In this document: in pieces, positions 7,466 to 58,483 of the stretch | How positions within the stretch are numbered: position 1 is the first letter of the stretch | How the letters are laid out: the number at the start of each line of letters is the position of its first letter | Source of the DNA: a bacterium | GTDB lineage: Bacteria; RUG730 | Direction: 5' to 3' | NCBI GenBank assembly: GCA_031551405.1 | Contig: JAVBNQ010000005.1 | Location: forward strand, 99,992 to 163,991 | DNA length: 64,000 bases | Program-made: the position numbers and the translations under genes | Notes under the pieces: model-generated | What the model saw: the letters and a program-made list of their open reading frames with translations, nothing else | What the model was told of the DNA's origin: nothing | The model's database searches: none

Positions 7466-7482
7466 ACAAAAAACTCTTGTAT

Positions 7483-7519
7483 ATAAAAAAATAGACTGCG
7501 CTAAAAAACGCAGCCTATT
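7483..7519 (-). terminator. Rho-independent terminator downstream of the RRM gene
   Basis: The minus strand reads ATAGGCTGCG-TTTTTTAG-CGCAGTCTAT (10-bp stem with one G.U) followed by TTTTTTA, about 30 nt after the stop at 7548. Confidence 0.7.
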
Positions 7520-7547
7520 TTAAATTTACTGGATTTAAATTTTAAGA

Positions 7548-7796
7548 CTATTCTCTATTTTGTTGAGGTCTAGCGAAATCTATTCTTAAAGTTCTTCCTT
7601 TGAAATCCTTTCCGTTCAATTCGTTTTTTGCTCTTTCTGCATCGCTTTCACTCGCCATATCGACGAATCCGAAACCTTTCCCTTCGATAATTTTAGCGTA
7701 TTTTACCTCGCCAAATGGAGCGAATAGATCCTTTAGCTCAGCGAAATTGACTGAGTAATTCAAATTCCCTACGTATAATTTACTGTTGTTTTGCAT
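7548..7796 (-). CDS. RNA-binding protein with a single RRM (RNP-type) domain
   Basis: 82 aa with RNP-2 LYVGNL and RNP-1 KGFGFVDM. Confidence 0.85.
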   Translation of the reverse strand: MQNNSKLYVGNLNYSVNFAELKDLFAPFGEVKYAKIIEGKGFGFVDMASESDAERAKNELNGKDFKGRTLRIDFARPQQNRE

Positions 7797-7925
7797 GTTT
7801 TCCTCCTTATATTTTTATATTCTGGAGAAAAATGCAAATGAAACTCCACAATATAATACACAAAAATACTTTCCTTTTAAAAAAATATTTCTGTTTTAAA
7901 AACTATATATTTTAAATTTTTGTAA

Positions 7926-7998
7926 AGCCTAGGATAGGACTTGAACCTACAACCTGAGGTTTACAAAACCCCTGCTCTGCCAATTGAGCTACCTAGGC
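7926..7998 (-). tRNA. tRNA-Thr (anticodon UGU)
   Basis: 73-nt cloverleaf on the minus strand: GCCTAGG acceptor, anticodon loop UUUGUAA, T-arm GTAGGTTCAAGTCCTAT. Confidence 0.88.
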
Positions 7999-8265
7999 AA
8001 TATCCAAAATTACAAGCCTAAAAACCTGTCGAAAATTCTTGCCAATTTTGTGGTAGGCTGAATTAAATTTTCATATATTTACGATAATTTATTAAAAAAG
8101 TCAAATTATTTTTACTACATTTCTGCCAGTCTAAATTTATAGATTTTTTCACAATAACAAAAATTATCTAAAGTAACAAAAAATACAAAACTTCCAAATG
8201 TACTCAGTTTTTATGCTTTTTATATTAGACAAAACTAACAATATTAGGTTAAACTAAAAAAATAC

Positions 8266-8294
8266 TTGCAAATTTTTAGAAAACTTATTATTTT
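8266..8294 (+). promoter_or_regulatory. Putative sigma70-type promoter for the porin-like gene
   Basis: TTGCAA (8266-8271), 17-nt spacer, TATTTT (8289-8294). This would give a leader of about 130 nt. AT-rich background makes chance matches likely. Confidence 0.35.
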
Positions 8295-8433
8295 ACAACC
8301 TAACTTTAAACTTCATAAAAAAATTCTATTTCAAATGTTAGATACAACTAATATTTATAAAATATAAACTTACATAAGGAGGCTTTTAAATTTTCTATTT
8401 CAGATAAATTAATTAAAAGGAGAAAAATATAAA

Positions 8434-9756
8434 ATGAAAAAATTCCACGCTTTCCTAATGCTAATTTTCTGTTTCCTGTTTTCTGGCTTTGCAATTGCTA
8501 AAGAAATCGAAAATTCTGAACGCTTAAACGTTTTTAATACGAATGCGAGCATAAAAATCGGCGGAGAAATCAAGTCGCAGTATTCGATTAGATCTGCGAA
8601 CATAGACGCAAATACAATTAATACATTTAATAATGGCGGGGACGATTATCTTGATTGGATTTATGGAACTTACGAAAGAAAACAAGATTTTGGAGCAGGC
8701 GATTTGTCAATGAGAGACGTGAAAGTCAATTTCGATATTTCAATAAACGAATGTTTCGGAGCATTCATTCAACTCGATCTGCAATCTTCCGGTGGAATTT
8801 CTGCCAACGGAGACTCAGATATCGCAGAAGCAGCTTATGTTTATTGGCAAAAAATAAATGATAGCAACTTCGGGATTTTAGTCGGACGTGACACGCTCAA
8901 ATTCGGGCAAGGAGATAATCCCGGAGTTCTGGGGACTTACGTTTCCGGCTCAGGCGAAGGAATTTCTGACTCTGGATCTAGCTCAAACTATTTCAATGCA
9001 GCCAAAAATATTTACGCGTTTGGATTCACAGATTCTACGTTCTTTGACATGGGTCTCATTTTGCCGCATAATGGCTGGGACGTCAAAAGAGTCACTCAAA
9101 TCACACCGTACTGGAAAGATGCCGACGAAAAATTGCGACTTGAATTGTCGCTTTTTCAAAATATTGGCTCAAATGATACTTTCACAGGCACAAATTTTGC
9201 CAATTACGATTCTAGCGACGACGGATTTCGTTCGTTCAGCGGAAGGATCGTCTCAAATCACATAAATGGTGTCCAATTAAGCGCGAGTTTTCTGAATTAT
9301 TTCAGCCGTTTTGCCGACGAACAATTTTATAATTTCCCAAAAAATTTAACTCTTAGCAAAAATAATACAGCTTTTGGATTAGCTGCGAGCTTCCGGCCGA
9401 TTTTTAACGAAAAACTTTTTGTCTGGGGAGAATGGATAAATAGTTCGAATGCAGCGCATTTCAAGGATTTGAATTCTGACGCGATTAATTTCGGAGCTGC
9501 TTACGATTTCACGAAAAATCTGACGATTTTTGGGCAAGGCGATTACTTAATTACGACGTTCAAGCAAACTGCTGCAAATAATTTGAAAACTGATGCATCA
9601 GCAATTTATGGCGGAATTCAGTACAAATTACCGTATGGCGTTAATCTCGAAGCTGGCTGGAAACATGAAATGATCGAATATTCTGATGACACCGACAAGA
9701 ATTTACTTAAAGCCAATGCAAACACGATTTATTTTAATGCAGGTTTTGCCTTTTAG
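8434..9756 (+). CDS. Putative outer-membrane beta-barrel porin
   Basis: 440 aa with a cleavable signal peptide (..SGFAIA/KE), an alternating amphipathic pattern, abundant G/N/S/D/Y and a terminal aromatic residue (..NAGFAF). A strong AAGGAG RBS precedes it. No specific family recognised. Confidence 0.55.
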   Translation: MKKFHAFLMLIFCFLFSGFAIAKEIENSERLNVFNTNASIKIGGEIKSQYSIRSANIDANTINTFNNGGDDYLDWIYGTYERKQDFGAGDLSMRDVKVNFDISINECFGAFIQLDLQSSGGISANGDSDIAEAAYVYWQKINDSNFGILVGRDTLKFGQGDNPGVLGTYVSGSGEGISDSGSSSNYFNAAKNIYAFGFTDSTFFDMGLILPHNGWDVKRVTQITPYWKDADEKLRLELSLFQNIGSNDTFTGTNFANYDSSDDGFRSFSGRIVSNHINGVQLSASFLNYFSRFADEQFYNFPKNLTLSKNNTAFGLAASFRPIFNEKLFVWGEWINSSNAAHFKDLNSDAINFGAAYDFTKNLTIFGQGDYLITTFKQTAANNLKTDASAIYGGIQYKLPYGVNLEAGWKHEMIEYSDDTDKNLLKANANTIYFNAGFAF

Positions 9757-9865: not shown

Positions 9866-11161
9866 ATGATCGAAAATATCAAAAATTTTTTAACTAATTT
9901 ACCAAATAGCTCTGGCGTTTATTTTTTTAAAGACGCGAAAAACACCATAATTTATATCGGGAAAGCGAAAAATCTAAAAAAACGCGTCTCGAGTTATTTC
10001 GTGGGCAAAAAAGATTTTAAAGTCGTCATGATGGTGCCGAATATCAGGTACATCGATTTTTTAGTGACTGATACGGACGAGGAAGCGTTTTTATGGGAAA
10101 ATACTCTCATAAAACGCTTCTCGCCAAAATATAACATCGATTTGAAGGACGACAAAACTTATCCGTATCTCAAGCTAACAACCGATAAATTTCCCTCAAT
10201 TTACATCACGCGAAAAGTAGAAAATGACGGTGCCGAATATTTTGGGCCGTATGTCGATGTAGAAACGCTCAAGTGGGTCGTGAGCCTAATAAAACAAATT
10301 TTCAATTTGCGAAAATGCAAAAAAAAGCTGACAGGCAAAAAAGAGAAGCGTCCGTGCCTAAATTTTTTTATGAACAAATGTTTGGGGCCTTGCTGTTACG
10401 CAATAAAAACGCAAGATTCTAGTGAGCTTTTGAAAGATATAAAAAAATTCGTCAAATGCGATTACAAAAATTTACTCAAAAAATGGAAAAAAGAAATTCA
10501 AGAACTTTCGACGAATCTGAATTTTGAAAAAGCAGAAATTCTAAAGCAAAAAATTTTGAATTTGGAAAAATTGCAAAACTGGAATATAAAGGTTTGGGAA
10601 ATAAAAAAAGATGATCTCGAGAAATTGCACCAAATTTACGATAAAAAAGAACAGGAATTAGCAAATCTCGAGAATATTTTTGACTTGCCGAAAAAAGTCA
10701 AAACTATCGCTTGTTTTGATATTTCGAATATTTCCGGAAAACACGCTGTAGGCTCACGAGTTGTTTTTGTCGATGGAAAACCAGAAAAAAGTATGTACAG
10801 GAAATACAAAATCAAATACACAAGCACAGAAAAACCGAACGATTTTGCGATGATGAACGAAGTAATTGAGCGCACACTAAAAGGCGATGATATCGAAAAA
10901 ATTGATCTTTTTGTAATCGACGGTGGAAAAGGGCAACTGAACGTCGCGGAAAATTTGCTAAAATTTTACAAAAAAAATATTTCGTTAATTTCCATAGCTA
11001 AAAAACAAGAAATCATATTTTTGCCGCATCAAAAAAATGGGATTCGTTTGCCGATGAATTCTGAGATTTTGAAATTAATCAGACACTTGCGAGACGAAGC
11101 TCACAGATTTGCGATAACTTATCACAAAAAACTTCGAAGCAAAAACAGTTTAAAAACGTAA
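9866..11161 (+). CDS. uvrC: Excinuclease ABC subunit C, short form (GIY-YIG, UVR and RNase H-like endonuclease domains; no C-terminal HhH2)
   Basis: N-terminal GIY-YIG (GVYFFKD..IIYIGKAKNLKKRVSSYF), a UVR-like helix (NFEKAEILKQKILNLEKL) and the C-terminal nuclease block (CFDISN..DLFVIDGGKGQL..LRDEAHRFAI). It is 431 aa, whereas UvrC is usually about 600 aa. Confidence 0.8.
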   Translation: MIENIKNFLTNLPNSSGVYFFKDAKNTIIYIGKAKNLKKRVSSYFVGKKDFKVVMMVPNIRYIDFLVTDTDEEAFLWENTLIKRFSPKYNIDLKDDKTYPYLKLTTDKFPSIYITRKVENDGAEYFGPYVDVETLKWVVSLIKQIFNLRKCKKKLTGKKEKRPCLNFFMNKCLGPCCYAIKTQDSSELLKDIKKFVKCDYKNLLKKWKKEIQELSTNLNFEKAEILKQKILNLEKLQNWNIKVWEIKKDDLEKLHQIYDKKEQELANLENIFDLPKKVKTIACFDISNISGKHAVGSRVVFVDGKPEKSMYRKYKIKYTSTEKPNDFAMMNEVIERTLKGDDIEKIDLFVIDGGKGQLNVAENLLKFYKKNISLISIAKKQEIIFLPHQKNGIRLPMNSEILKLIRHLRDEAHRFAITYHKKLRSKNSLKT

Positions 11162-11163
11162 AA

Positions 11164-12456
11164 ATGCAAGAACAAAATTTAGAAATAATCGAGAGACTAA
11201 AAAATTATTACAAAAATACAAAAACAGCTCTGGATTTTAGCACACCTTTTGAGCTTCTCGTAGCAACGATTTTATCAAGTCAATGCACCGACGAGCGCGT
11301 TAATAAAATCACACCGAATTTATTCAAAAAATACAGAAACGTTCGAGGCTTTGCAAAAGCCGAGCAACTCGAACTTGAAGAAGAAATCAAAAGCTGCGGA
11401 TTTTTTCGCAACAAAACAAAAAGCATCATTGAATCGAGCAAACGCATCCTTGAAATTTACGACGGAAAAGTTCCGGAGAAGATGGAAGATTTGATTACTT
11501 TACGAGGAGTGGCGCGCAAAACCGCGAACATCATTCTCTCATCGTGTTTCGGCAAAGCTGAAGGAATTGCTGTTGACACGCATGTGATTCGTTTATCACA
11601 TCGATTCTTGTTTTCTGCGAGTCAAAATCCGGACAAAATTGAAAAAGATTTGATGAATTTTATTCCAAAAAAAGATTGGCTGATTACGAATTATATGCTC
11701 GTGAATCACGGTAGAAAATTTTGCCGTGCGATTAATCCAAAATGCGAAATTTGTTTTTTGAAAGATATTTGCCCATATTTCAACCGTGCAAAAAGACCAA
11801 AAATCACTCTAAAATTCGCGCAGAGTCTAGATGGAAAAATCGCGGCTCAAACCGGCGATTCAAAATGGCTAAGCAACCCAAAAATGCTCGAATTTGCTCA
11901 CGAACTTAGGGCAAAAAATGACGCGATTCTGGTTGGAATAAATACAATTTTGAAAGATGATTCTCTCTTAACAGTTCGACGAGTGAAAGGACAAAATCCA
12001 ATTCGACTCATACTCGACTCAAACCTAAAAATCTCTCTTGAATCGCAAATTATAAAAACCGCGAATAAAATCAAAACGATAATTTTTATTTCAAACAAAA
12101 CAAAAATTTCTGACGAAAAACAAAAATTTTTGGACAAAAAAAATATAAAAACTGTCAAAATAAAAAATGTAGACGAAAATTTAGGCTTGGATTTGGGCGA
12201 GATCCTAGAGCATGTAGAGAAAATCGGAGTGAAAACGCTCTTAGTTGAAGGCGGGAGCAAAGTCATCACGAATTTTATAAAAAACGATTTGTTTGATAGA
12301 ATTTATATTGTTTTTTCGCCAATACTCATCGGGAACGACGGAATTCCTGCAATTCAAAATTTAGGAATCAAAACCATAAAAAACGCTAAAAAACTCGAGC
12401 TGAAAAGTTTAAAGCAAATTGAAAATAATTTTATTCTTGAGCTTAGCCAAAAGTGA
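11164..12456 (+). CDS. nth: Fusion protein: endonuclease III (Nth, HhH-GPD plus 4Fe-4S) joined to a RibD C-terminal-type pyrimidine reductase domain
   Basis: aa 1-~210 carry Nth motifs: LVATILSSQCTD, HhH LRGVARKTANI, catalytic VDTHV and the Cys cluster C-x6-C-x2-C-x5-C (CRAINPKCEICFLKDIC). aa ~213-430 carry RibD_C motifs: ITLKFAQSLDGKIA, WLSN, HELRAKNDAILVGINTILKDD, LLVEGG. It is a single uninterrupted frame. Confidence 0.8.
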   Translation: MQEQNLEIIERLKNYYKNTKTALDFSTPFELLVATILSSQCTDERVNKITPNLFKKYRNVRGFAKAEQLELEEEIKSCGFFRNKTKSIIESSKRILEIYDGKVPEKMEDLITLRGVARKTANIILSSCFGKAEGIAVDTHVIRLSHRFLFSASQNPDKIEKDLMNFIPKKDWLITNYMLVNHGRKFCRAINPKCEICFLKDICPYFNRAKRPKITLKFAQSLDGKIAAQTGDSKWLSNPKMLEFAHELRAKNDAILVGINTILKDDSLLTVRRVKGQNPIRLILDSNLKISLESQIIKTANKIKTIIFISNKTKISDEKQKFLDKKNIKTVKIKNVDENLGLDLGEILEHVEKIGVKTLLVEGGSKVITNFIKNDLFDRIYIVFSPILIGNDGIPAIQNLGIKTIKNAKKLELKSLKQIENNFILELSQK

Positions 12457-12561
12457 ACGACACCTAATAATGAATTGTAAATTCCTTGTTGTCCAGTTCC
12501 AAAAATTAAGAGGCGACTCCATAATAAAGGAAATCGGACAAAATTTAGAAAATTTATATTT

Positions 12562-13027
12562 TCGTTTTTTGCTAAAAAATTCGTTTTTTCATCTCAAGTC
12601 CACACGTTTTTAGACAGAAAATTTCACAAAAATACAAAAAAATGTTCACGTTTTTTTGATTTTAAAAAACTTTTTTATTTTTCAGTCCTCACGATAAGAT
12701 TTTCATTTTCCACGTGCGCGGCGTTCTTTTTTTTCGAAAAACCAACTCCAAAGCCGTAGGTTTTTCGAGCTTTTCCTAGGCTTTTCCTCGCAAAACTCGC
12801 TTCACTCCATTTCGCTCATACAGTTGCGAGCAAGGTTTTCTTATTTAATCCCCGCCTAATTTTTTCGTTCCTTCCTAAAGTTTTTTTGGTCTACTTTTAG
12901 GAGCCTACAGACGATAAATTTTAAAAACCTTGTTTGAATTTTCTCTTTCTCGTGAGCTTTTTTGTCCTTTTTCTAGGTTTTTATTTTTTTTCTTCTGTTT
13001 TTTGTCTTTTTTTAAATAACTGCATTT
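12562..13027. repeat. Mosaic intergenic repeat locus A (X box, M1, M2, first ~15 nt of M3)
   Basis: X box 12562-12611 matches 32053-32102. M1 12664-12859 matches 57639-57832 (about 6 mismatches in about 200 nt by eye), and its core matches 32121-32268. M2 12860-~12998 matches 31385-~31520. There is no ORF of 60 aa or more apart from a junk-like one. Confidence 0.9.
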
Positions 13028-13056
13028 TTTCTCCGGGTCTTTGCTTTTAAATTTTT

Positions 13057-20341: not shown

Positions 20342-20980
20342 CTAACTTTTCTTATAAACTACAATACATCTATCTCTGCCTTCTCCTTCTGACTGTGAAT
20401 AAAAATCTTTGCTTGAGTCAAGAATCAAATGTATTATCCTTCGATCTCTGTTATTCATGGGTCTTAATTTATATGGTTTTCCGGTTTCTAAAATTTTTTT
20501 TGTAACATGTTCGAGCATTTCTTCGATTTGAATTTTTCTTTGTTCTTTATAATTATCGACATCAATATCAATTTTTATGTTGTTTTTTTGTTCTTTTGCA
20601 ACAATCCAATTTACTATCATGTCAAAAGCGTCCAAAATATCACCGGATCTGCCTATCAAAAATTTTCTATCGTCGCCATATAGTTTTATCAAAATTCTGC
20701 CACCAAAAACTGTGGCTTTTATATCCAGCTTCAAATTCATCAATTTTAATAAATGTTCGACTTTCCACTTTACGTCCTGAAGAAGATCAGAAAGATCTAT
20801 TTTTGGATCCTTGAGAGACATCTTTATTTTGACATAAGTATCACCGAGTAAATTCAAAAATCCAGCCTTTTTCTCTTCCAAAATCTCAATATCGACTGCG
20901 TCTTTTGTGGTTTTCAATTCTTCTAACCCAAGCTTCACAGCTTCTTCAAAACTTTTAGCCTTTAAAGTCAAAGTTTTCAT
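20342..20980 (-). CDS. jag: Jag/KhpB-type RNA-binding protein (Jag_N, KH, R3H)
   Basis: 212 aa with a C-terminal R3H motif (NNRDRRIIHLIL) and a conserved position downstream of yidC. Confidence 0.8.
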   Translation of the reverse strand: MKTLTLKAKSFEEAVKLGLEELKTTKDAVDIEILEEKKAGFLNLLGDTYVKIKMSLKDPKIDLSDLLQDVKWKVEHLLKLMNLKLDIKATVFGGRILIKLYGDDRKFLIGRSGDILDAFDMIVNWIVAKEQKNNIKIDIDVDNYKEQRKIQIEEMLEHVTKKILETGKPYKLRPMNNRDRRIIHLILDSSKDFYSQSEGEGRDRCIVVYKKS

Positions 20981-21009
20981 ATTTTCCCTCTTTACAAAAT
21001 TTTTTAAGA

Positions 21010-22572
21010 CTATTTATTTTGTTTTGATAAATAAAAATTCAAAGCCAAAGTAAAAATATTGCTTACAAGCCAATACAAAACTAATCCCGACGGAAAGTTC
21101 CAAAACATAAATAAAAACAAAATTGGCATAAACAAAAACATTTTATTTTGCATATCATCCGACGACGTAACAGTATTAATTTTCTGATTCAAAAACATAG
21201 TTAGCCCCATAAGTATTGGCAAAATATTTATAGGAATCCCGGCCAAATGTCCTATTGTATCAGGTTTTGCAAGGTCTTTCACCCATAAAACAAATGGCGC
21301 GTGTCTTAGTTCCGTCGCATTCCGCAAAGTCGAAAATAATGCCCAAAAAATTGGCAGCTGAAGCAAAAGCGGTAAGCATCCTCCAAATGGATTAACTTTT
21401 TCGCTCTTATATAGAAGCATGGTTTCCATATTCATTTTTTGAGAATCGTTCTTATATTTTTGTTTCAAAGCTTCGAGTTTTGGTTGAAGTTTTTTCATGG
21501 CATGCATTGCGGAATAGCTTTTTTTGTTAAGAGGGAAAAGTAGGATTTGAAGAATTGCGGTTAGGATAATAATCGACCAGCCGTAATTTTTTGTAAAAGC
21601 ATAAAATAACGATAAAAGCCACAGTAAAAATTTCACGAGCCAACTAAAAATTCCAAGAGACAGATTTTTTTCTAAGTCTTTATCGAATGACGCGAGATAT
21701 TTGTAGTTTTTTATGCCCCAAATCGTGTCGAGCTCTAGCGTCGTAGCTGAATTTGGTTCTAATACTAAATTTGTCGAATAATAAGCATTCGGAATTTTGT
21801 AATCTATGACGTTAAATTGACTAAAAAAATTATTTTTATCTATCAAAATTGAACAAAAATAATGATTATTTATCGAAAACCAAGAATTTTTCCCGAGATC
21901 ATAAAATTGTTCTTTTGGCTTTTTTGTGATTTTGTCATTATTAAAAAATAAAAAACTCATGTCTTTAATTTCTTGATTATATTTCAATTTTTCATCGGTG
22001 CCTATGCCTGGTCCAAGTCCAATTCTGAAATTTGTAATTTTCTTTGCTTCACGAGACGAATTGCGAATTTGCATTTTTATGTTAATTAATCCAACGTCGT
22101 CGCCAAATCTATATTCCGTTTCAATGCCGATTTCATCATTTATTTTTCCGATCAGAATCAAGCTCGATTCGTCTTGCATGACTGGCGTCTGAAAATAAGT
22201 CACATTCGGATGAATTGTAAGCGGATAAATTTTATCGGAATAAATCAACTCAACGTTATTATTTTTTTCCTTGATAACATAGCTCGTGATACCACCAAAT
22301 TTATCAAAAGTAATTTTTCGATTTTTATCTTCCAGAACAAACGAATATTTATCATCTGAATTTGCCATCTCTAGCTTGTCATTTACAGACGTTATATCTT
22401 GGACTTTCTCGTCAGCAGTAACAACCTCGGATTTCATTTCCTGATTAGCAAGTTCACGAGGATTTGAAACTTTTTTCTTATTGTTGAAAAACATAAACCA
22501 CAAAAATATCACCAAAAAAGATAAAACTACAGCGAAAATAGTATTTTTTTCCATATTTTTTATTCCTATCAT
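21010..22572 (-). CDS. yidC: Membrane protein insertase YidC
   Basis: 520 aa with an N-terminal TM, a large periplasmic domain and a C-terminal 60-kDa IMP core (GGCLPLLLQLPIFWALF..). It lies within the rpmH-rnpA-yidD-yidC cluster. Confidence 0.9.
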   Translation of the reverse strand: MIGIKNMEKNTIFAVVLSFLVIFLWFMFFNNKKKVSNPRELANQEMKSEVVTADEKVQDITSVNDKLEMANSDDKYSFVLEDKNRKITFDKFGGITSYVIKEKNNNVELIYSDKIYPLTIHPNVTYFQTPVMQDESSLILIGKINDEIGIETEYRFGDDVGLINIKMQIRNSSREAKKITNFRIGLGPGIGTDEKLKYNQEIKDMSFLFFNNDKITKKPKEQFYDLGKNSWFSINNHYFCSILIDKNNFFSQFNVIDYKIPNAYYSTNLVLEPNSATTLELDTIWGIKNYKYLASFDKDLEKNLSLGIFSWLVKFLLWLLSLFYAFTKNYGWSIIILTAILQILLFPLNKKSYSAMHAMKKLQPKLEALKQKYKNDSQKMNMETMLLYKSEKVNPFGGCLPLLLQLPIFWALFSTLRNATELRHAPFVLWVKDLAKPDTIGHLAGIPINILPILMGLTMFLNQKINTVTSSDDMQNKMFLFMPILFLFMFWNFPSGLVLYWLVSNIFTLALNFYLSKQNK

Positions 22573-22599
22573 CTAAAATCACAAAGAAAATTCAAAAAA

Positions 22600-22851
22600 T
22601 TAATCTTCCAAATAATCAATTCCTCCCTCACAAAACGGATGACATTTTCTGAGCCTGTTCACGGTTAAAAAAAGCCCTTTCAAAAACCCTTTTTTCTGAA
22701 AAGCCTGCAAGGAATACTCAGAACACGTCGGATAAAATCTGCATCTTTTGGGGAAGAATTGTGAGGTAATTTTGTACAGTTTTATGATTGGCAAACATAA
22801 AAATTTCACTAGATTTTTATCTAATTTAACAAAAAATTTTATCTTTTCCAC
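22600..22851 (-). CDS. yidD: Membrane protein insertion efficiency factor YidD
   Basis: 83 aa with [13 protein letters not shown] motifs. Confidence 0.85.
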
Positions 22852-23180
22852 AAACTTAGTAGTTCCTCTTGTATGCCGGACATCTTCAAGTCCGAAAAAT
22901 CTTTTTTTGCAATTACAAGAATATCTTTCTTTTCCAAGTCAAATATTTCAGATTTGTGAAGCCGAAAAATCTCTCGAACTAATCTTTTCATTCTATTTCG
23001 TTTAGCTGCAATGGCAACGGACTTTTTTATCGAAATTGCGATTCGATTAAATTCTAAACCGTTCGGACAGAAATAAACCAAAAAAATTTTACTTGAAACT
23101 TTAGTGTTACACGTGAACAACCGCGTAAAATCTCTCTTTAAACGGATTTTTTCATTATAAGCAAACGAATTTTTTTTCAA
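22839..23180 (-). CDS. rnpA: Ribonuclease P protein component
   Basis: 113 aa, basic, with an RNR-type motif ([13 protein letters not shown]). It lies directly downstream of rpmH. Confidence 0.85.
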
Positions 23181-23181
23181 A

Positions 23182-23316
23182 TTACACGCACAAAACCTTT
23201 CTACCTTTCTGTCTTCTTGATTTCAAAACATTTCGTCCGGCTTTTGAGCTCATTCGCACCAAAAAACCATGTGTTCTTCGTCGTCGCCTATTATTAGGCT
23301 GGTAAGTCATTTTCAT
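23182..23316 (-). CDS. rpmH: 50S ribosomal protein L34 (below the ORF-track length cutoff)
   Basis: Manual translation of the minus strand gives [44 protein letters not shown] (44 aa), a clear L34 signature. A GGGAGA RBS sits upstream and the stop is 1 nt before the rnpA start. Confidence 0.9.
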
Positions 23317-29042: not shown

Positions 29043-31280
29043 TTAAAATCCAGACTTATCAGTTTCAATATCATTTATAATTTTATTACTAGAATAAAAG
29101 CTCGAATCCATGGCAAATTCAGCCGGTTCCGTGCCTTTTATAAAAACTTCCATGTACGAATTTTCATTCATCTCAAATGCTCTCAAACCTGTTTTTTTAT
29201 CGATAGGCACAAGAGTACAATTTTCAGGCATTACAAAATCTGAAATAGGTTTGTCTTTTAACGCTTCCTTCATAAAATCGAGCCATATAGACGCTGACAA
29301 CTTCCCTCCAGTCTGGTTTCGACCCAAAGTTTTCTGATCATCATACCCCACCCACACGCTAGCAACAAGCTCCGGAGTATAAGCAATAAACCACGCATCT
29401 GAATAATCATTCGTCGTACCCGTTTTCCCAGCCGCCGGACGACCCAAAGCCTTAGCTCGCATTCCTGTTCCATTATTGATTACTCCACGCAAAAGATTGG
29501 TTACAACATAACTAGTTTCTTCGCTCAATACAGCTGTCTCCTCTGGCGAATGTTCTTCCAAAATATTCCCCTGATTATCACAAATTTTTATAATTGCATA
29601 CGGCTCCGTCCTAATTCCATTATTTGCAAGAGTGGCGTAAGCGTTTGTAAGCTCAAGCGGCGTCACAACGAAAGTTCCAAGAGCCATTGACAAATACGGA
29701 CTCACACTGCTTTTTATCCCGAGTTTTTGCGTGTATTCAACACCGACTTTCGAAGTCACTTGTTCTAGAAGCTTTATTACTGCAATGTTCACAGAATTTT
29801 CAAGAGCCTGACGCATAGTTATATTACCTAAATATTTGTGAGAGTAATTCCCGGGCATCCAAATTTGCAAAGGATCGTACGGAGTTCTTTGTTTTTTTCG
29901 TTTTGCTTTGTCTTTGTATTCCGGCATATCCTCGAGTTTACGCAATTTATCTTTTATTTCTTGAGGAAGATCCGAGAGATCATGATTTTTCCCGACTAAT
30001 TGCCAATCAATTCCGTTGTTGTAGTAAACTACTGGTGAATCGTCCAGAATTGTGTTTGGCGGAATTTTTTGATCTATTGCAGCAGTGAAAATTATTGTCT
30101 TAAAACTTGATCCGGGTTGCCGTTTTGCCTGCGTAGCACGGTTAAATTGGCTTTGCTTGAAATTTCTACCGCCAACCAAAGCTCGAATTTGCCCGGTTTT
30201 TGGATCAAGAGCAATGACAGAGCCTTGAACGTTTTTGTAAGCTTCCGTACTAGCATAAATCTTCAAATCGTCATCTGGATAAGTAATTTTTTTTGTTTCT
30301 AAAAACTTTTGGATTTTCGAAAGTTTTTCTGCATCGAACTTAGCAAGATTATCTTCAAATGCGTTAACAGCTGCTATTTGCATGTCAAGGTCCAGAGTCG
30401 TGTAAATTCGCAATCCGCCTTTATACAAAACGTCTCCATAGTAAGGCTCAAGTTTCTGGCGGATATATTCAACAAAATACGAAGCATATCTCTGCCGACT
30501 AAATTTTTCCAAAACATTTGTAGGCTTCTCCAAAGCGTTTTCATAATCGCCTTTCGTTATAAATCCATCTTTAAGTAACCTTTTTATGACGGTGTTACGT
30601 CTAGCTATAGCTGCTTCTGGATTTTTGTATGGAGAGTAGTATTCCGGAGCTTTTGGTAAACCTGCCAAAAGAGCACATTCTTCCAAGTTTAAATCCGTCG
30701 GAGATTTTCCAAAATAAAGTTCAGATGCGAGTTGAATTCCATAAACTCCGTGTCCAAAATAAATATGATTAAGATAAATTTCCAAGATCTCATTTTTTGA
30801 ATAACGTTGCTCGAACTTTACAGCCAAAATCACTTCTTTAATTTTTCTCGAAATCTTTTTTTCGCTGGTTAAAAATAAAGTTTTTGAGACTTGTTGAGTA
30901 ATTGTGCTTCCGCCTTGTACAAACTTGCCGTGCGCAAAGTCTTTGATTAATGCACGTAAAATCCCCATTGGCGAAATACCCCAATGTCCATAAAAATCAG
31001 AATCTTCCGTCGCTATGATAGCATTTATTAGGTTTGGTGGGAGGTCTTTGAGATGTACAAATGCACGACGTTCGATAAAAAATTCGTCGACCAATTTACC
31101 GTTTATATCAAAAATTTTTGTAGAAAGCTTTGGCTTATACTCCTCTAATTCCTCGATAGAAGGCAAATCTTGCATGCAAGTTTGTAAAAAATTGTAGGTT
31201 AAAACACCACAAATTATTATAACGATTCCTGCTAGTGTTAAAATTAATTTAAATAAATTTTTCTTCAAAAAGTCGGTCAT
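29043..31280 (-). CDS. Class A penicillin-binding protein (bifunctional glycosyltransferase/transpeptidase, PBP1A type)
   Basis: 745 aa with GT51 motifs (EDSDFYGHWG, GGSTITQQ) and transpeptidase motifs SSFK, SVN and KTGTT. Confidence 0.9.
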   Translation of the reverse strand: MTDFLKKNLFKLILTLAGIVIIICGVLTYNFLQTCMQDLPSIEELEEYKPKLSTKIFDINGKLVDEFFIERRAFVHLKDLPPNLINAIIATEDSDFYGHWGISPMGILRALIKDFAHGKFVQGGSTITQQVSKTLFLTSEKKISRKIKEVILAVKFEQRYSKNEILEIYLNHIYFGHGVYGIQLASELYFGKSPTDLNLEECALLAGLPKAPEYYSPYKNPEAAIARRNTVIKRLLKDGFITKGDYENALEKPTNVLEKFSRQRYASYFVEYIRQKLEPYYGDVLYKGGLRIYTTLDLDMQIAAVNAFEDNLAKFDAEKLSKIQKFLETKKITYPDDDLKIYASTEAYKNVQGSVIALDPKTGQIRALVGGRNFKQSQFNRATQAKRQPGSSFKTIIFTAAIDQKIPPNTILDDSPVVYYNNGIDWQLVGKNHDLSDLPQEIKDKLRKLEDMPEYKDKAKRKKQRTPYDPLQIWMPGNYSHKYLGNITMRQALENSVNIAVIKLLEQVTSKVGVEYTQKLGIKSSVSPYLSMALGTFVVTPLELTNAYATLANNGIRTEPYAIIKICDNQGNILEEHSPEETAVLSEETSYVVTNLLRGVINNGTGMRAKALGRPAAGKTGTTNDYSDAWFIAYTPELVASVWVGYDDQKTLGRNQTGGKLSASIWLDFMKEALKDKPISDFVMPENCTLVPIDKKTGLRAFEMNENSYMEVFIKGTEPAEFAMDSSFYSSNKIINDIETDKSGF

Positions 31281-31528
31281 AAAATTCCTAATTTGATTAA
31301 AACTCTCTCATTCTCGCGAGATTTTTTGCTTATTTTTTCGTTTTTTTTATTTTCTTCTTCATTTTTTTCTAAAAATTACGATGTAATTTTTTCGTTCCTT
31401 CCTAAAGTTTTTTTTGTCTACTTTTAGGAGCCTACAGACGATAAATTTTAAAAACCTTGTTTGAATTTTCTCTTTCTCGTGAGATTTTTTAGTTCTTTTT
31501 ATGGTTTTTTTTCTTCTATTTTAAATGT

Positions 31529-31664
31529 CTGCATATCGAAGAGAAGATGGAAAAATTGAGAAAATCGTTTGAAATTTCTAACTGTTTGAGCCCTCACTTG
31601 TGAGCGGCGAGTTTTAGAAATTTAGATTTTTGAAAATTTTTTCCCTATCTCTGAAGTACAGCAG
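31529..31664. repeat. M3 module: ~136-nt imperfect palindrome (long hairpin)
   Basis: The left arm CTGCATATCGAAGAGAAGATGGAAAAATTGAGAAAATCGTTTGAAATTTCTAAC faces the right arm GTTTTAGAAATTTAGATTTTTGAAAATTTTTTCCCTATCTCTGAAGTACAGCAG. The centre holds CTCACTTGTGAG. A second copy lies at 57980-58116. Confidence 0.8.
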
Positions 31665-31698
31665 CCTAGCCTTTTTTGTTTATTTTTTGGGCAATGCC

Positions 31699-32020
31699 AA
31701 AAAAGAAAATAAAAATTTGACCAAACTTTCGTTTTTCGAAATCCGCAGGCTTTGCCGAAAAAATAAATTTTTAGCTTTATTTTTCTAAAACTTTTGTAAA
31801 TTTTTATCTCGCTGTCAAAAAAGAAAATAAAGATTTGACCAAACTTTTGTTTTTTGAAATCCGCAGGCTTTGCCGAAAAATGGATTTTTTAGCTTTATTT
31901 TTCTAAAATTTTTGTAAATTTTTATTTCGTTGCAAAAAAAATAGAAATTTGATCAAACTTTTGTTTTTCGAAATCCGCAGGCTTTGCCGGAAAATGAAAA
32001 TTTTTAACTTTATTTTTTTC
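31699..32020. repeat. M4 tandem repeat, ~118-bp unit x 2.7
   Basis: Units are 31699-31816, 31817-31933 and 31934-~32020. Each contains AAAAAAGAAAATAAAGATTTGACCAAACTTTTGTTTTTCGAAATCCGCAGGCTTTGCCG. Confidence 0.9.
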
Positions 32021-32251
32021 TCAGGATAACTTAAAGAAAAAAACAAAACCCATCGTTTTTTGCTCAAAAATTCGTTTTTTCATCTCAAGTCCACACGTTT
32101 TTGGGCTAGAAATATTGCATGCGGTATTCTTTTTTTTCGAAAAACCAACTCCAAAGCCGTAGGTTTTTTGAGTTTTTCCTAGGCTTTTCCTCGCAAAACT
32201 CGCTACGTTCCACTTCGCTCATACAGTTGCGAGCAAGGTTTTCTTATTTAA

Positions 32252-32265
32252 CCCCCCCCCCCCCC
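32252..32265. repeat. Homopolymeric C14 tract inside the M1 module
   Basis: I count 14 consecutive C. The other two M1 copies have TCCCCGCCTAATTTTTT at this position. Confidence 0.9.
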
Positions 32266-32328
32266 GCCGTTCCTTCCTAAAGTTCAATCGTTTGCAAATT
32301 TTTACTTTTCTTAAGCCTCAGCTACGCA

Positions 32329-33828
32329 CTATTCCAAGCTTCGCAAATATTTTTCAAGCAAATCAAAGGCTTCTTCTGTATTCGAAATCTCACCTACTGC
32401 CTGATTTTCCTCGACTAAATCCAATAATTTCCCAATCAATGGCGACGGATGCAACTCAAATTTTTGCATAACATCATTACCATTTATTAATAGTTTTGGT
32501 TTTTTATTTTCGAGTGATTTGAAATGCCAAGCCAATATTTTTTCGACTTGAAATTTGCAAATTTTAAAATCGCTGTACTCAAAATCCTCGAAAGTTATAC
32601 CGCCTTTGTACGTCTTGAGCCTAGCTCCACGGATCGATGCGAGCCAGTCCGCCAAAGTAAAAAACAAAAGTCCGACTGCTTCATCCTCAGTTTTCTTAAA
32701 AAATCGAAAATAGGCGCGATCAGTAATCTCTTTTTCCCTCGCCAAATTCCCAAAATACATGTGAAATTTCGCAAAATTTTTTGTTTTATCCGTTTCTTTA
32801 TTGCCGAATTTCAAATCTTTTAACATTTTATTTGTGTGCCGGCTCGAAATCTCATCGTGATTTATGAAATGAATTTTCTCGCCTTCAATCTTTAAAGTTT
32901 CAGGTTTTCCCACATCGTGAAAAAGACACGCGATTTTCAAAAGTCCAACATTATTTTCTTGCTCCAAATAATCTCGAAAAAAACTTGCAATTTTCGAATC
33001 GAACAATTTTTCTAAATTCTTGAGTATAAATTCGAAGCAAAACAAAACCTCGAGCGAGTGCCCCCACAAACCTTTTTTATGATAATAATTTTCTTGTTCT
33101 CGTTTCATTAAATTTGCTTGAGGGAAAATCTGCGAAAACAACTCAGTTTCATCCATCGCAAGTACAAACTCGAAAATATCGTCATAAGAAAAAAATTTCA
33201 CGAGTTCTTCGCGAATTCTCTCTCCGGCAGAATTTTTGATCAAACCTGTTTTTTTTTCAATCAAAACCAACGTAGATTTGTCGATATGAAATTTATATTT
33301 TGCGGCAATACGAAACGCTCGCAAAAGACGCAGCGGATCATCGTCAAAAATATTTACTGAAATCGCTCGAATCGTTTGGTTTTTCAAATCAGAAAACGCG
33401 TTCAATTTATCGATAATTTTTTGTTCAAAACCTTCAAAAATCGAATTTTGTTCATCTGTTAATTCTATCGCAAAACTGTTGATCGTAAAATCTCGAGTCT
33501 TCAAATCTTCCTCTAAAGTTTTACCTTTTGCTTGCGTAAAATCTAAACTAACTATTTTTTCTTCGACTTCAAAATTTTTCACAACTCGATAACTTTTTTG
33601 CTGATCGTCCAGAACTACAAAACTTGCTTTCAAAATAGCCGCTATTTCCTTCGCAAAAACCTGTGAATTTCCAAAAACTATAAAATCCAAATCAAAAGTT
33701 TTATTATCAAGCAAAAGATCTCGTATAAATCCGCCAACTAAAAAAACTTTAACATCTAACTTTTTTGCTAGTTTAATTGTTTTTTCAAGAAGAAAATCAA
33801 TCGTTTCTTTAAATTTAGCCTCGTTCAT
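32329..33828 (-). CDS. cca: CCA-adding tRNA nucleotidyltransferase / poly(A) polymerase family protein with HD domain
   Basis: 499 aa with the PolyA_pol head (LVGGFIRDLLL, DLDF), an RNA-binding region (DPLRLLRAFR) and an HD motif (CLFHDVGKP). Confidence 0.8.
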   Translation of the reverse strand: MNEAKFKETIDFLLEKTIKLAKKLDVKVFLVGGFIRDLLLDNKTFDLDFIVFGNSQVFAKEIAAILKASFVVLDDQQKSYRVVKNFEVEEKIVSLDFTQAKGKTLEEDLKTRDFTINSFAIELTDEQNSIFEGFEQKIIDKLNAFSDLKNQTIRAISVNIFDDDPLRLLRAFRIAAKYKFHIDKSTLVLIEKKTGLIKNSAGERIREELVKFFSYDDIFEFVLAMDETELFSQIFPQANLMKREQENYYHKKGLWGHSLEVLFCFEFILKNLEKLFDSKIASFFRDYLEQENNVGLLKIACLFHDVGKPETLKIEGEKIHFINHDEISSRHTNKMLKDLKFGNKETDKTKNFAKFHMYFGNLAREKEITDRAYFRFFKKTEDEAVGLLFFTLADWLASIRGARLKTYKGGITFEDFEYSDFKICKFQVEKILAWHFKSLENKKPKLLINGNDVMQKFELHPSPLIGKLLDLVEENQAVGEISNTEEAFDLLEKYLRSLE

Positions 33829-47745: not shown

Positions 47746-48273
47746 TTAAAGCTTCTCGTAAATATAATTTCCATTTACGTCAATACCGACGATTAAAGGC
47801 ATATCAACAATTTCAAGTTTGTAAATAGCTTCAGACAACAAATCCGAAAAAGCCGCAACCTCGCATTTCTTTACGGAATTTGCGAGAAGCGCCCCGCACC
47901 CACCCGGAGCGACCAGATAAATCGCTTTATTTTTAACACACGAATCTATTACTTTTACGCCTCGTTTTCCTTTTCCTATAGTAGCTGCTATTTTTATTTC
48001 ACTAAGCATAAACGGCGTAAAAGAATCCATTCTGCTACTCGTAGTTGGACCGCAAGAACCGATTACTTTACCTCGTGGAGTCTGAGATGGGCCGCAGTAG
48101 TAAATCACCTGATCCTTCAATTCTAACGGCGCTTTTTTTGCGTCAAAAATTCTTTTGTGAGCAGCATCTCGAGCTGTGTAAATAGTTCCACTTAAAAGTA
48201 CTTCGTCACCGACTGCTAAACCAGAGAAAATATTTCTATCTAAAAATGGAGCGACAATTCGTTTTGATTTCAT
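47746..48273 (-). CDS. Class I (Fe-S) fumarate/tartrate hydratase, beta subunit
   Basis: 175 aa; ..LSGTIYTARDAAHKR..YYCGP..GPTTSSRMD.. matches the Fumerase_C domain. Confidence 0.85.
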   Translation of the reverse strand: MKSKRIVAPFLDRNIFSGLAVGDEVLLSGTIYTARDAAHKRIFDAKKAPLELKDQVIYYCGPSQTPRGKVIGSCGPTTSSRMDSFTPFMLSEIKIAATIGKGKRGVKVIDSCVKNKAIYLVAPGGCGALLANSVKKCEVAAFSDLLSEAIYKLEIVDMPLIVGIDVNGNYIYEKL

Positions 48274-55821: not shown

Positions 55822-57510
55822 TTATAAAACTTTTTTTTCGCACGGAATTTTATAATAGAATGCTAAAAATTCCACAATATCCTTAAAAGCCGGGCCACAC
55901 ACCTCGCCTCCCCAATAACCACCGCGAGGAGAATCCACAACAACCAAAATCGAAAATCGTGGATTATCGATCGGAAAAACTCCAGCCAAAGATGCAATAT
56001 AATCGGTATTTGAATATTTTCGCGTTCTCGGATCAATTTGTTGAGCAGTTCCGGTTTTCCCGCCAACTCTATATCCGCGCATTTTCACGAATTGCCCACT
56101 GCCTCGCGTTACAACTGCTTCCATACTTTTAAGCAAATCCTTACAAATATTTTCAGGCAAAATTTGTCTAACAAATCTAGGCTTTTGTTCTATCATTTTC
56201 CCGTCTTGTTCGATCGCTTTTATAATACGCGGCTCGAGCATGTTTCCATTATTTGCAATACTCGAATAGGCGCTTATGATTTGCAAGCAAGTCACTCCGA
56301 GCCCCTGTCCAAACGGGATAATGTACTGCGAAAGCCCAGACCAATTTTTTGTGTCTTTTAGCAAACCTTTTGCTTCGCCGGGTAATTCTATTCCGGTATA
56401 ACAATTAAATCCGAACTTTTTCAAATAATAGTACAATTTTTCTTTGCCAAGCATTTCACCAATTTTTGCCATTCCGATGTTACTGGAATTTACGAGTACA
56501 TCTTCAACTGTGATTTTATTATATTTTTGGCCATGATCTTTTATCGTGTGGTTGTAAATTTTAAATTTTCCGTTCTCGCAATCAATTTTGGTTTTTAAAG
56601 TTACAACATTTTCATTTAACGCTGCTCCAACAACCATAACCTTCAACGTCGAGCCTGGCTCAAAAACTTTGCTGATTGCGTTATTGCTGAGACTCGAAAT
56701 ATTTTTCTGCGTTTGATTCGGATTGAATCTAGGCGCATTCCCCATCGCTAGAATTTCTCCTGATTTTATATCCTGAACAATTATAGTGACAGTCAAAGCT
56801 TTACTTTTTTCCATAATTCTGTCTAAATTTTTCTCAATGTAAAGCTGTAAGTTCGAATCAATTGTCAAATAAATATTTTCGGCTTTGTAATTTTCAATTT
56901 CTAAAATCTTTTCTTGCCCAATATCTCGCCCTTTCGCATCTCTTTCATTATAAATTTTGATTACGCTGCCTTCCAAAATCTTTTCTTTGCTGAACTCAAT
57001 CCCGCTTAGTCCTCTATTGTCGAGACCAGTGTAACCGAGAGTATGACAAAGTATTTCGTTCGACGGATAAAATCTTTTTTCTTCCTTTATCCTCGCAATT
57101 CCTGTCGGTAATTTTTCTGCCATTTTATTTGAATCAAATTTACGTTTTAACCAGAAAAATCCTCGATGTTTTTGCAAGTCCTTCAAAAATTCATTTCTAT
57201 CAAAACCCAAGAATTCTTCTGTAAAATTTGCGGCCTCTATAGTATTTTTGATTTGTTTTGGGAAGCAAAAGTAGGAATATTTTAGGCTGGAAAATGCTAG
57301 AATTTCGCCATTTCGATCGTAAATATTACCACGCAAATGACGAACTTCCTCAGGTTTTAAGATCTGTTTTTTCAAAAAATTTCTGTAAGAAAAACTTTTT
57401 ATAGTCTGTATATAAAAAATACGTAAAAATAATACTGAGAATATAAAAATAATTAAAACTGCAAAAGCATTGATTTTCCAACGCATATTTGCTTGATATT
57501 CGCGATGCAT
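55822..57510 (-). CDS. Class B penicillin-binding protein (FtsI/PBP2-type D,D-transpeptidase)
   Basis: 562 aa with an N-terminal TM, the PBP dimerisation domain (RGNIYDRNGEILA) and transpeptidase motifs STLK, SSN and KTGTA. Confidence 0.9.
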   Translation of the reverse strand: MHREYQANMRWKINAFAVLIIFIFSVLFLRIFYIQTIKSFSYRNFLKKQILKPEEVRHLRGNIYDRNGEILAFSSLKYSYFCFPKQIKNTIEAANFTEEFLGFDRNEFLKDLQKHRGFFWLKRKFDSNKMAEKLPTGIARIKEEKRFYPSNEILCHTLGYTGLDNRGLSGIEFSKEKILEGSVIKIYNERDAKGRDIGQEKILEIENYKAENIYLTIDSNLQLYIEKNLDRIMEKSKALTVTIIVQDIKSGEILAMGNAPRFNPNQTQKNISSLSNNAISKVFEPGSTLKVMVVGAALNENVVTLKTKIDCENGKFKIYNHTIKDHGQKYNKITVEDVLVNSSNIGMAKIGEMLGKEKLYYYLKKFGFNCYTGIELPGEAKGLLKDTKNWSGLSQYIIPFGQGLGVTCLQIISAYSSIANNGNMLEPRIIKAIEQDGKMIEQKPRFVRQILPENICKDLLKSMEAVVTRGSGQFVKMRGYRVGGKTGTAQQIDPRTRKYSNTDYIASLAGVFPIDNPRFSILVVVDSPRGGYWGGEVCGPAFKDIVEFLAFYYKIPCEKKVL

Positions 57511-57979
57511 AGACGCTAGCCTTTTAATTTATTGAATTTTTATTAGAAACTAATTCAGGATATAATTTTTATTTCTCAATACTGAAAAACAAAAAAATCG
57601 GTTTAAAATTTCAGAAGTTTATATTTTTTTGCTTTTTCAAAACTTTTTTATTTTTCGGTCCTCACGATGAGCTTTTCATTTTCCACGTGCGCGGTGTTCT
57701 TTTTTTTCGAAAAACCAACTCCAAAGCCGTAGGTTTTTCGAGCTTTTCCTAGGCTTTTCCTCGCAAAACTCGCTTCACTCCGTTTCGCTCATACAGTTGC
57801 GAGCAAGGTTTTCTTATTTAATCCCCGCCTAATTTTTTTGTTCCTTCCTAAAGTCCTCTCGCCCAGCTTTTAAATTCTTTCTAAACGTTTTTCTTTTAAT
57901 TCTTGTTTAAATTCTATCAATCTCGTGAGCTTTTTTAGTTCTTTTTATGGGTTTTTCTTTTTTTTCTATTTTTAAATGT

Positions 57980-58116
57980 CTGCATAGCGAAGAGAAGATG
58001 GAAAAAATTGATAAAATCGTTTGCAATTTCTAACTGTTTGAGCCCTCACTTGTGAGCGGCGAGTTTTAGAAATTTAGATTTTTGATAATTTTTTCCCTAT
58101 CTCTGAAGTACAGCAG
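57980..58116. repeat. M3 module copy 2: ~137-nt imperfect palindrome
   Basis: Same arms and the same central CTCACTTGTGAGCGGCGAG as 31529-31664, with a few substitutions and 1-nt indels. Confidence 0.8.
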
Positions 58117-58150
58117 ACTAGCCTTTTTTGTTTCTTTTTTGGGCAATATC

Positions 58151-58328
58151 AAAAAAGAAAATAAAGATTTGACCAAACTTTTGTTTTTCGAAATCCGCAC
58201 GCTTTGCCGGGAGATGGAATTTTTTAGCTTTATTTTTCTAAAATTTTTATAAAGTTTTATCTCGCTGCCAAAAAAGAAAATAAAGATTTGACCAAACTTT
58301 TGTTTTTTGAAATCCGCAGGCTTTGCCG
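58151..58328. repeat. M4 tandem repeat, ~119-bp unit x 1.5
   Basis: Units 58151-58269 and 58270-58328 share the AAAAAAGAAAATAAAGATTTGACCAAACTTTTGTTTTT(C/T)GAAATCCGCA(C/G)GCTTTGCCG core with the locus B units. Confidence 0.9.
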
Positions 58329-58483
58329 TAATTGGAAACTTTAAGTTTTTGTTTTGGTTTCATCTCTACAAATTGCGATGCAATTCATCATGGAGGAAAA
58401 TGAGAAAACTTAGATAAATATATTTTCGTTTGTTGCCTAGAAATATTATTTTTCCATCTCAAAACATAAAAATCAAAATGTCT

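Follow-up and report, generated by a model that had tools for sequence, protein, structure and literature searches.

We analysed a 64,000-nt stretch of bacterial contig JAVBNQ010000005.1 (hereafter the window), in particular the gene-free spacer at 31281-32328 between a class A penicillin-binding protein (PBP) gene of the PBP1A type (29043-31280, minus strand) and a CCA-adding/poly(A)-polymerase-family gene with an HD domain (32329-33828, minus strand). The genome belongs to an uncultured member of the Elusimicrobiota and is compact and AT-rich (~34% G+C). The original prediction for this spacer, made from the sequence alone, described a non-coding mosaic of repeat modules shared with two other loci and stated that no open reading frame (ORF) of 60 aa or more is present; indeed, the longest ORFs within it encode 54, 53 and 52 aa. 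We refer to this spacer as locus B, to the spacer at 12457-13056 as locus A and to that at 57511-58483 as locus C. By length, loci B, C and A are the top three of the 59 intergenic gaps in the window (1048, 973 and 600 nt), where the median gap is 20 nt. Our analysis shows that these spacers, otherwise short, hold three different arcs, overlapping in part, of a single ancestral non-coding unit of ~0.9 kb (X-E-M1-M2-M3-M4n).

Three arcs of one repeat unit in three spacers

Comparison of the window with itself by blastn linked all three spacers. A12644-13007 matches C57617-57981 (85.5% over 366 nt), B31384-31902 matches C57830-58354 (86.3% over 527 nt), and the shorter pairs A12857-13001 with B31384-31522 and A12562-12626 with B32053-32119 are 91.1% and 91.0% identical, respectively. 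Module profiles run over the window with nhmmer at maximum sensitivity matched loci A, B and C only, all on the plus strand. Furthermore, every exact repeat of at least 31 nt in the window lies inside these loci, the longest being 86 nt. Both searches bear out the prediction that the same modules recur in the same orientation at two other loci, and the M2 hairpin, M3 palindrome, X box, M1 core and 16-nt head of M2 at 32269-32284 were all found where they had been placed. The limits of homology are wider than first given (12498-13030 in A, 57603-58482 in C), and the repeats end 1-106 nt from the flanking genes, so that the spacers are nearly full. The repeat observation is genuine, its coordinates are correct and the similarity is far beyond chance.

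Six modules can be distinguished: X (~60 nt, with a weakly conserved pre-X before it), E (86 nt), M1 (141 nt), M2 (~145-175 nt), M3 (~136-145 nt, an imperfect hairpin) and M4 (118 nt, a tandem unit). E had been overlooked in the original prediction; it is present in loci A and C and absent from B. A single cyclic order, X-E-M1-M2-M3-M4(n)-X, is kept throughout, and each locus represents a different arc of it. Locus A reads preX-X-E-M1-M2 and stops 8 nt into M3, locus B reads (partial M2)-M2-M3-M4 x2.7-X-M1-(16 nt of M2), and locus C reads E-M1-M2'-M3-M4 x1.9-preX'-X', where primes mark diverged forms. The modules are placed as follows.

Locus A
12498..12561, plus strand: pre-X, with weak homology to 58365-58425 (blastn 12498-12597 vs 58365-58462, 73% over 101 nt, E=1e-10)
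12562..12622, plus strand: X box, 90-91% identical to 32053-32113 (nhmmer X profile, E=4e-22)
12630..12715, plus strand: E, 78% identical to 57603-57688 (nhmmer, E=5e-21)
12716..12856, plus strand: M1 core, 98.6% identical to 57689-57829 and 92.8% to 32121-32268
12857..13030, plus strand: M2 with the hairpin CCTAAAGT..ACTTTTAGG, 91% identical to 31384-31522; homology stops ~8 nt into M3; the 3' part is T-rich

Locus B
31301..31370, plus strand: duplicate of the 3' part of M2 (partial M2), 79% identical to 31464-31520 and 72% to 12937-13030
31384..31528, plus strand: M2 (blastn, nhmmer)
31529..31672, plus strand: M3, an imperfect hairpin with arms of ~60 nt and the invariant apex CCCTCACTTGTGAGCGG, 96.5% identical to 57981-58125
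31698..32020, plus strand: M4 array of two full 118-nt units and one truncated 87-nt unit (Tandem Repeats Finder, TRF)
32053..32113, plus strand: X box (blastn, nhmmer)
32121..32268, plus strand: M1 core, with a C14 homopolymer (32244-32262) at its end in place of the TCCCCGCC of loci A and C
32269..32284, plus strand: first 16 nt of M2, GTTCCTTCCTAAAGT; the sequence beyond is unmatched in the window

Locus C
57603..57688, plus strand: E (alignment, nhmmer)
57689..57829, plus strand: M1 core, 98.6% identical to that of locus A
57830..57980, plus strand: M2 variant with the hairpin part replaced and an internal tandem duplication, 68% identical to the other M2 copies
57981..58125, plus strand: M3 hairpin, the better-paired copy
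58150..58355, plus strand: M4 array of one full and one truncated unit
58365..58482, plus strand: diverged pre-X and X box, 73% identical to 12498-12597 (nhmmer X profile, E=5e-13)

Locus B runs from M2 to the head of a second M2, slightly over one turn of the cycle, which implies a higher-order unit of ~0.9 kb; the prediction of such a unit therefore stands, as does that of a modular non-coding repeat with fixed boxes and one internal box of variable number. The internal box is M4. TRF places its array in locus B at 31698-32017 with a period of 118, 2.7 copies and 87% matches, in agreement with the 2.7 units of ~118 bp originally described. Between the fixed M3 and X modules there are 2.7 copies in B and 1.9 in C, and in both loci the final unit is truncated at the identical point. 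Smaller tandem duplications were detected by TRF inside M2, of 21 nt x2.8 at 12958-13012 in locus A and of 64 nt x1.9 at 57857-57977 in locus C. The partial M2 tail claimed at 31303-31370 proved to be homologous at 31301-31370, albeit weakly (72-79% identity, nhmmer M2 profile E=7e-7). It ends 20 nt from the PBP1A start codon, and within it a perfect 10-bp palindrome, TCTCGCGAGA, lies at 31313-31322, 33-42 nt upstream of that codon; the other M2 copies carry the imperfect form TCTCGTGAG instead.

An independent assembly was available in the form of Logan contigs (k=31) from run SRR23967709, which are 100% identical to the window and reproduce all six flank-to-repeat junctions at 100% identity. 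Contigs from a second run, SRR23967707, are identical across their overlap with locus A. Four of the SRR23967709 contigs stop at 31413, 57725, 58299 and 12604, each exactly 30 nt into an exact repeat within the window (31384-31414, 57696-57781 and 58269-58328 for the first three), as a de Bruijn graph at k=31 is expected to break there. Divergence of 1-30% between copies and a maximum exact-repeat length of 86 nt put them within reach of assemblers that use large k, or of 150-nt reads. The junctions are no assembly artefact; the confirmation covers these junctions alone. The C14 tract, at the M1/M2 border of locus B and outside the cover of any independent contig, may be prone to slippage (phase-variable) or else reflect a fault in sequencing or assembly.

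Locus A lies between two convergent genes, an endonuclease III-RibD_C fusion gene (nth-ribD) and a PTPS/queD-type gene. The former is a single ORF of 430 aa (11164-12456, plus strand) in which an endonuclease III-type HhH-GPD/FeS glycosylase is fused to a RibD C-terminal (reductase) domain, an unusual combination. Locus C is flanked by two minus-strand genes, a formyltransferase (purU-like) gene and a class B PBP gene (55822-57510); its X box ends 1 nt from the formyltransferase stop codon.

Conserved cores, linkers and coding potential

Identity between copies is strongly uneven. Between A and C, E is 78% identical whereas the adjoining M1 is 98.6% identical (19/86 vs 2/141 mismatches, Fisher p=2.5e-7). 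Between B and C, the corresponding figures for M2 and M3 are 68% and 96.5% (46/145 vs 5/143 mismatches, Fisher p=8e-11). The same pattern is seen inside M4: across the five units, columns 1-60 are 94% identical and columns 61-89 only 73% (7/60 vs 15/29 variable columns, Fisher p=1e-4), so that conservation is concentrated in a core made of the first 60 nt, with variation in the second half of the unit. Overall, conserved cores (M1, M3 and the first 60 nt of M4) at 93-99% stand against linkers at 56-86%. The inter-copy identity of about 90-97% estimated by eye in the original prediction thus applies to these cores, while M2 (68-86%), E (78%) and X with its flanks (56-73%) fall below it. Relatedness is also mosaic, with M1 pairing A with C and M2 pairing A with B.

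Such patchiness could result from ectopic gene conversion or from purifying selection acting on M1, M3 and the M4 core, and with three loci the two are not separable. The strength of the contrast is consistent with the suggestion of concerted evolution or functional constraint.

No reading frame is conserved across the module copies. The plus-strand frame of M1 is open in all three copies; a start codon is present in B only, and the differences between copies are non-synonymous. In M4, the 118-nt unit changes frame from one unit to the next. None of ten small ORFs from the loci was found in a collection of ~15 billion proteins, and a 1428-aa concatenate of stop-free stretches of at least 28 aa (six frames of locus B plus selected stretches of A) had no match at E<=1e-3. 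We considered type I toxins for the hydrophobic ORFs of 32-38 aa in M2; these are a product of T-richness, and in locus C they are frame-shifted or lack a start.

We also looked for short signals. A CTCAC/GTGAG motif had been reported to recur in M1, M2 and M3, but it shows no independent enrichment: the excess arises from counting copies of the same modules, and the motif does not occur in the M1 core. The idea that the loci carry DnaA boxes or parS-like sites was discarded together with that of the CTCAC motif; no DnaA-box match was found in them. A 20-nt motif, CAAAGCC-N3-GG..TTTCGA, occurs in opposite orientation in M1 and M4, at about chance level by a rough estimate. Phasing of A-tracts gave no period common to the three loci, in a comparison whose shuffle control was inadequate.

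Origin of the repeats and competing explanations

Searches beyond the window returned no relative of the repeats. Conserved 20-25-mers of M1, M3 and M4 were scanned as exact patterns against GTDB species representatives, JGI metagenomes and IMG/VR, with 0 matches except 13 for an M4 20-mer. These 13 lie in contigs of 43-68% G+C and mostly extend over 22-23 matching nt; a longer but weak match was seen in one contig only (53-56 nt at 73-75%) and lies inside a coding ORF, and all were rejected. Blastn in distant mode against phage and plasmid collections gave no match, and nothing relevant was found in the literature on intergenic repeats of Elusimicrobia. The nearest PBP1A homologues are encoded in metagenome-assembled genomes of Elusimicrobiota and are 58-63% identical. 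In five contigs from these relatives the spacer upstream of PBP1A measures only 30-97 nt and contains no detectable module, and the gene neighbours are different ones, indicating that the repeat DNA was gained in this lineage. Judged from these sequence comparisons, the repeat family is an orphan and lineage-specific.

The account we favour, to which we attach about even confidence, is that the loci belong to a lineage-specific family of composite ('mosaic') non-coding intergenic repeats, similar in kind to the BOX-type elements of pneumococcus and Streptococcus suis, the NIME arrays of Neisseria and the BIMEs of enterobacteria, and shaped by slippage, unequal crossover and ectopic conversion. 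The ancestral unit would once have formed a head-to-tail array, parts of which were copied into short spacers and then reshaped by the replication and recombination machinery of the host. Copy numbers may have been altered by slipped-strand mispairing and unequal crossover with periods of 21, 64, 118 and ~160 nt, deletions may have remodelled the arcs further, and ectopic gene conversion between loci would account for the pairing of A with C in M1 and of A with B in M2. No enzyme encoded by the element would be involved, nor would the family yield a protein or, probably, an RNA of its own. As to the cores (M1, the M3 hairpin and the 60-nt start of M4), they are most likely hairpins in DNA or transcript or protein-recognition sites, tolerated or mildly useful between genes, for example by insulating adjacent transcription units; if the flanking PBP genes are affected at all, this would be incidental.

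Several points weigh against this account. The contrast between cores and linkers could stem from purifying selection for a genuine function instead of from conversion tracts. All three copies are co-oriented, and each stands directly after the stop codon of a minus-strand gene. The window has just two PBP genes, with loci B and C upstream of them, and three gaps drawn at random from 59 would include both PBP-upstream gaps with p=0.0018, a post hoc figure; a neutral model predicts no such placement. Only three loci are visible, too few to give family size, insertion-site preference or mobility. No terminal inverted repeats, target duplications or empty sites were found that would show how a copy enters a new spacer, the best end-to-end pairs being A/T-rich matches of 71-75%.

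The placement beside PBP genes suggests a regulatory alternative, in which the repeats serve the peptidoglycan synthase genes as common cis-regulatory DNA or as a long 5' leader, with the class A and class B PBP co-regulated. On the minus strand the order M4n-M3-M2 lies upstream of both genes, the M4 cores would be iterated binding sites and M3 a structure in the leader. The M2-M3-M4 block occurs in loci B and C only, its 527-nt match (B31384-31902 with C57830-58354) stands upstream of these two genes alone, and the chance of 0.0018 given above, the much better conservation of the 60-nt M4 core than of the rest of the unit (p=1e-4) and the invariant apex of M3 all speak in its favour. However, the association is post hoc and drawn from three loci, and the block lies at different distances from the start codon (104 nt in B vs 320 nt in C), with M1 and E intervening in C only. 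Locus A carries M1 and M2 with no PBP neighbour and sits between convergent genes, no sigma-70-like promoter is conspicuous, and the short PBP1A spacers of relatives contain nothing comparable. We consider this explanation unlikely. A stronger version, in which the M1 and M3 cores and the iterated 60-nt M4 core make up an undescribed cis-acting control region or leader coupling class A and class B PBP expression in this Elusimicrobiota lineage, or a recognition scaffold for an unknown DNA- or RNA-binding factor, and were copied between PBP genes for that function, seems to us decidedly unlikely. The PBP association is intriguing, if post hoc, and is the one lead that could raise the importance of the family.

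We next consider RNA. The loci could be non-coding RNA genes present in several copies and encoded on the T-rich plus strand, in antisense to the minus-strand genes beside them, with M1 and M3 as structured cores and T-runs as terminators. M3 is the only module that folds significantly better than its shuffles, with RNA z-scores of -2.4 to -5.9 across strands: the locus B copy reaches -35 kcal/mol (z=-2.4 on the plus strand, -3.5 on the minus strand; DNA z=-2.3) and the locus C copy -44.2 kcal/mol (z=-5.1 and -5.9; DNA z=-4.2). M3 of locus C has five plus-strand G-U pairs that become C-A mismatches on the minus strand, the sole B-specific change in an arm of the M1 hairpin yields a G-U pair on the plus strand, the B-specific changes in M1 lie mostly in a predicted loop, and T-runs follow several hairpins. 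Against this, the z-score of M3 is equal or better on the minus strand and the fold also holds as DNA. M1 and M2 fold no better than shuffles (z -0.5 to -1.9 at best), and the five M4 units give a weak consensus fold (~-7 kcal/mol) with zero compensatory pairs; copies are too few for a test of covariation. Rfam at the gathering threshold returned five tRNAs only over the whole window, and when E was relaxed to 10 or 1 for the three loci the best hit had E=0.13, far below gathering, such matches being due to chance. No terminator-like site was called at loci A, B or C, and promoter-like sites at B and C are in no excess over shuffles. Locus A has 5 such sites against 1.3 expected, all at 12400-12502, a stretch that falls within or beside the end of nth-ribD, at or before pre-X and outside the conserved modules. 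The non-coding RNA raised as one form of functional constraint in the original prediction is thus not borne out, and we regard dedicated RNA genes as improbable.

A further proposal is that the repeats are nested, non-autonomous mobile elements of the MITE or REPIN kind, mobilised in trans by a transposase encoded outside the window, with M3 as the recognised hairpin. M3 does resemble a long hairpin of REPIN type, and the spacers hold inserted DNA that relatives are without. Moreover, two further Logan contigs end at 32283 and 12972, with no exact repeat partner in the window for 32283-32313 or 12972-13002, which hints at more copies or module variants elsewhere, although contigs also end for other reasons. 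Conversely, terminal inverted repeats and target duplications are lacking at the ends of the loci, homology in locus A runs 8 nt into M3 instead of stopping at a module edge (for both reasons the loci were rejected as MITEs), and the arms of M3 never occur singly. One fixed module order is not what independent insertions would give. None of the ~55 genes of the window, all housekeeping-like, encodes a transposase (Y1 or other), integrase, reverse transcriptase or Cas protein, as originally noted. A mobile element of this kind therefore appears to us a slim prospect.

Finally, a decayed duplicated gene or prophage, or an assembly artefact, is very improbable: reduced AT-rich genomes do build up pseudogene debris and the C14 tract and internal module order lie outside the independently confirmed junctions, but there is no protein similarity in any frame and no phage or plasmid match, the copies are divergent enough to be resolved, and all six junctions recur at 100% in contigs of which four end where exact repeats predict.

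Relation to known intergenic repeats and significance

We regard the loci as a new family of a known kind, the composite intergenic repeat, and not a member of any named family, with BOX the closest. BOX-type repeats (boxA-boxB(n)-boxC in Streptococcus pneumoniae; boxD, boxE and boxF in Streptococcus suis) likewise combine fixed modules with one tandem module of variable number. The S. suis families comprise seven sub-sequences in different permutations, with a boxE of 115 nt and a boxF of 133 nt (PMC3049150), sizes close to those of M4 (118 nt), M3 (136 nt) and M1 (141 nt) here. The resemblance to BOX elements that had been noted from the sequence holds, while the accompanying view that the present element is several-fold larger is weakened, as modules of 115-133 nt are already known in S. 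suis (PMC3049150). Change in BOX copy number is ascribed to slippage, unequal crossover, or circular excision and reinsertion. In BOX, however, the terminal boxA and boxC inverted repeats pair into one stem-loop, whereas no inverted repeat joins the ends of any locus here; BOX elements are complete A..C units, whereas the full unit here is ~0.9 kb and the loci are circular permutations of it; and BOX exceeds 100 copies per genome, compared with three loci seen in the 64-kb window. No sequence similarity to BOX surfaced in the Rfam, phage or plasmid searches.

Neisserial intergenic mosaic elements (NIMEs) are arrays of different non-coding modules of ~50-150 bp that fill intergenic regions and are thought to act through recombination affecting flanking genes (PMC1797815). 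They share with our loci a mosaic of different non-coding modules between genes. Their modules are split by a 20-bp inverted repeat, dRS3 (ATTCCCN8GGGAAT; PMC1797815), whereas no recurrent delimiter is found at the module borders here; the sole inverted repeat at a border is a short one between M3 and M4, TTTTTTGG-N6-CCAAAAAA. Module order also varies in NIMEs, in contrast to the one cyclic order here. REP, BIME and REPIN elements are, like these repeats, extragenic, hairpin-forming, composite and situated at the 3' ends of genes, M3 having the look of a long REPIN-type hairpin. REPs are 20-40 bp long, bear a GTAG or CGTC tag, exceed 100 copies, alternate in orientation within BIMEs and are associated with a RAYT gene (PMC2817692, PMC3733652). 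Here each hairpin-bearing locus has a single 136-nt hairpin, the copies are co-oriented, only three loci are seen, and no RAYT (Y1 transposase) gene is present among the ~55 genes of the window.

Mycobacterial MIRU/VNTR loci are tandem arrays of a single module with units of tens to ~100 nt, found between co-directional genes and often in frame with the flanking genes. They are similar to our loci in having tandem units whose copy number differs between loci; here the tandem M4 is one part of a six-module composite. Two other candidates were rejected. A CRISPR array does not fit, as the 118-nt units abut without spacers and the window has no cas gene. An integron attC site was considered for M3, the ends of which (...AATGTCTGCAT and GTACAGCAGCC...) have no R''/R' core sites (RYYYAAC ... 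GTTRRRY), and no integrase gene lies in the window.

Other features of the window were noted in passing. On either side of tRNA-Thr(tgt) lie gaps of 460 and 435 nt (7466-8433 and 8434-9756), with G+C as low as 20%, and after them comes a 440-aa ORF that has no match in Pfam; no sequence is shared between either gap and the repeat family. At 9866-11161 (plus strand) lies a gene for a short UvrC-like protein of 431 aa, for which a Pfam scan gives GIY-YIG and UvrC RNase H-like domains only. Genes for class I fumarate hydratase subunits (Fumerase and Fumerase_C) are found 45 kb apart on opposite strands, at 1636-2514 (plus) and 47746-48273 (minus). An rpmH-rnpA-yidC-jag cluster occupies 20342-23316 (minus strand), with rmuC and rho upstream. 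Such a cluster usually adjoins dnaA/oriC; the cumulative GC skew here shows no switch.

Most of what is known of composite intergenic repeats comes from a few well-studied pathogens. The importance of the present family is modest, as it is an orphan repeat at three loci, moderately unusual in the size of its unit and in the circular permutation between loci. In practical terms, the points at which short-read assemblies of this organism break on these repeats are predictable, and strains could be told apart by M4 copy number and the C14 tract. The location of two of the loci upstream of the PBP genes provides a testable hypothesis on the control of cell-wall genes. If the full genome confirms the family, it would mean that a compact, AT-rich genome of an uncultured phylum also tolerates kilobase-sized non-coding mosaics.

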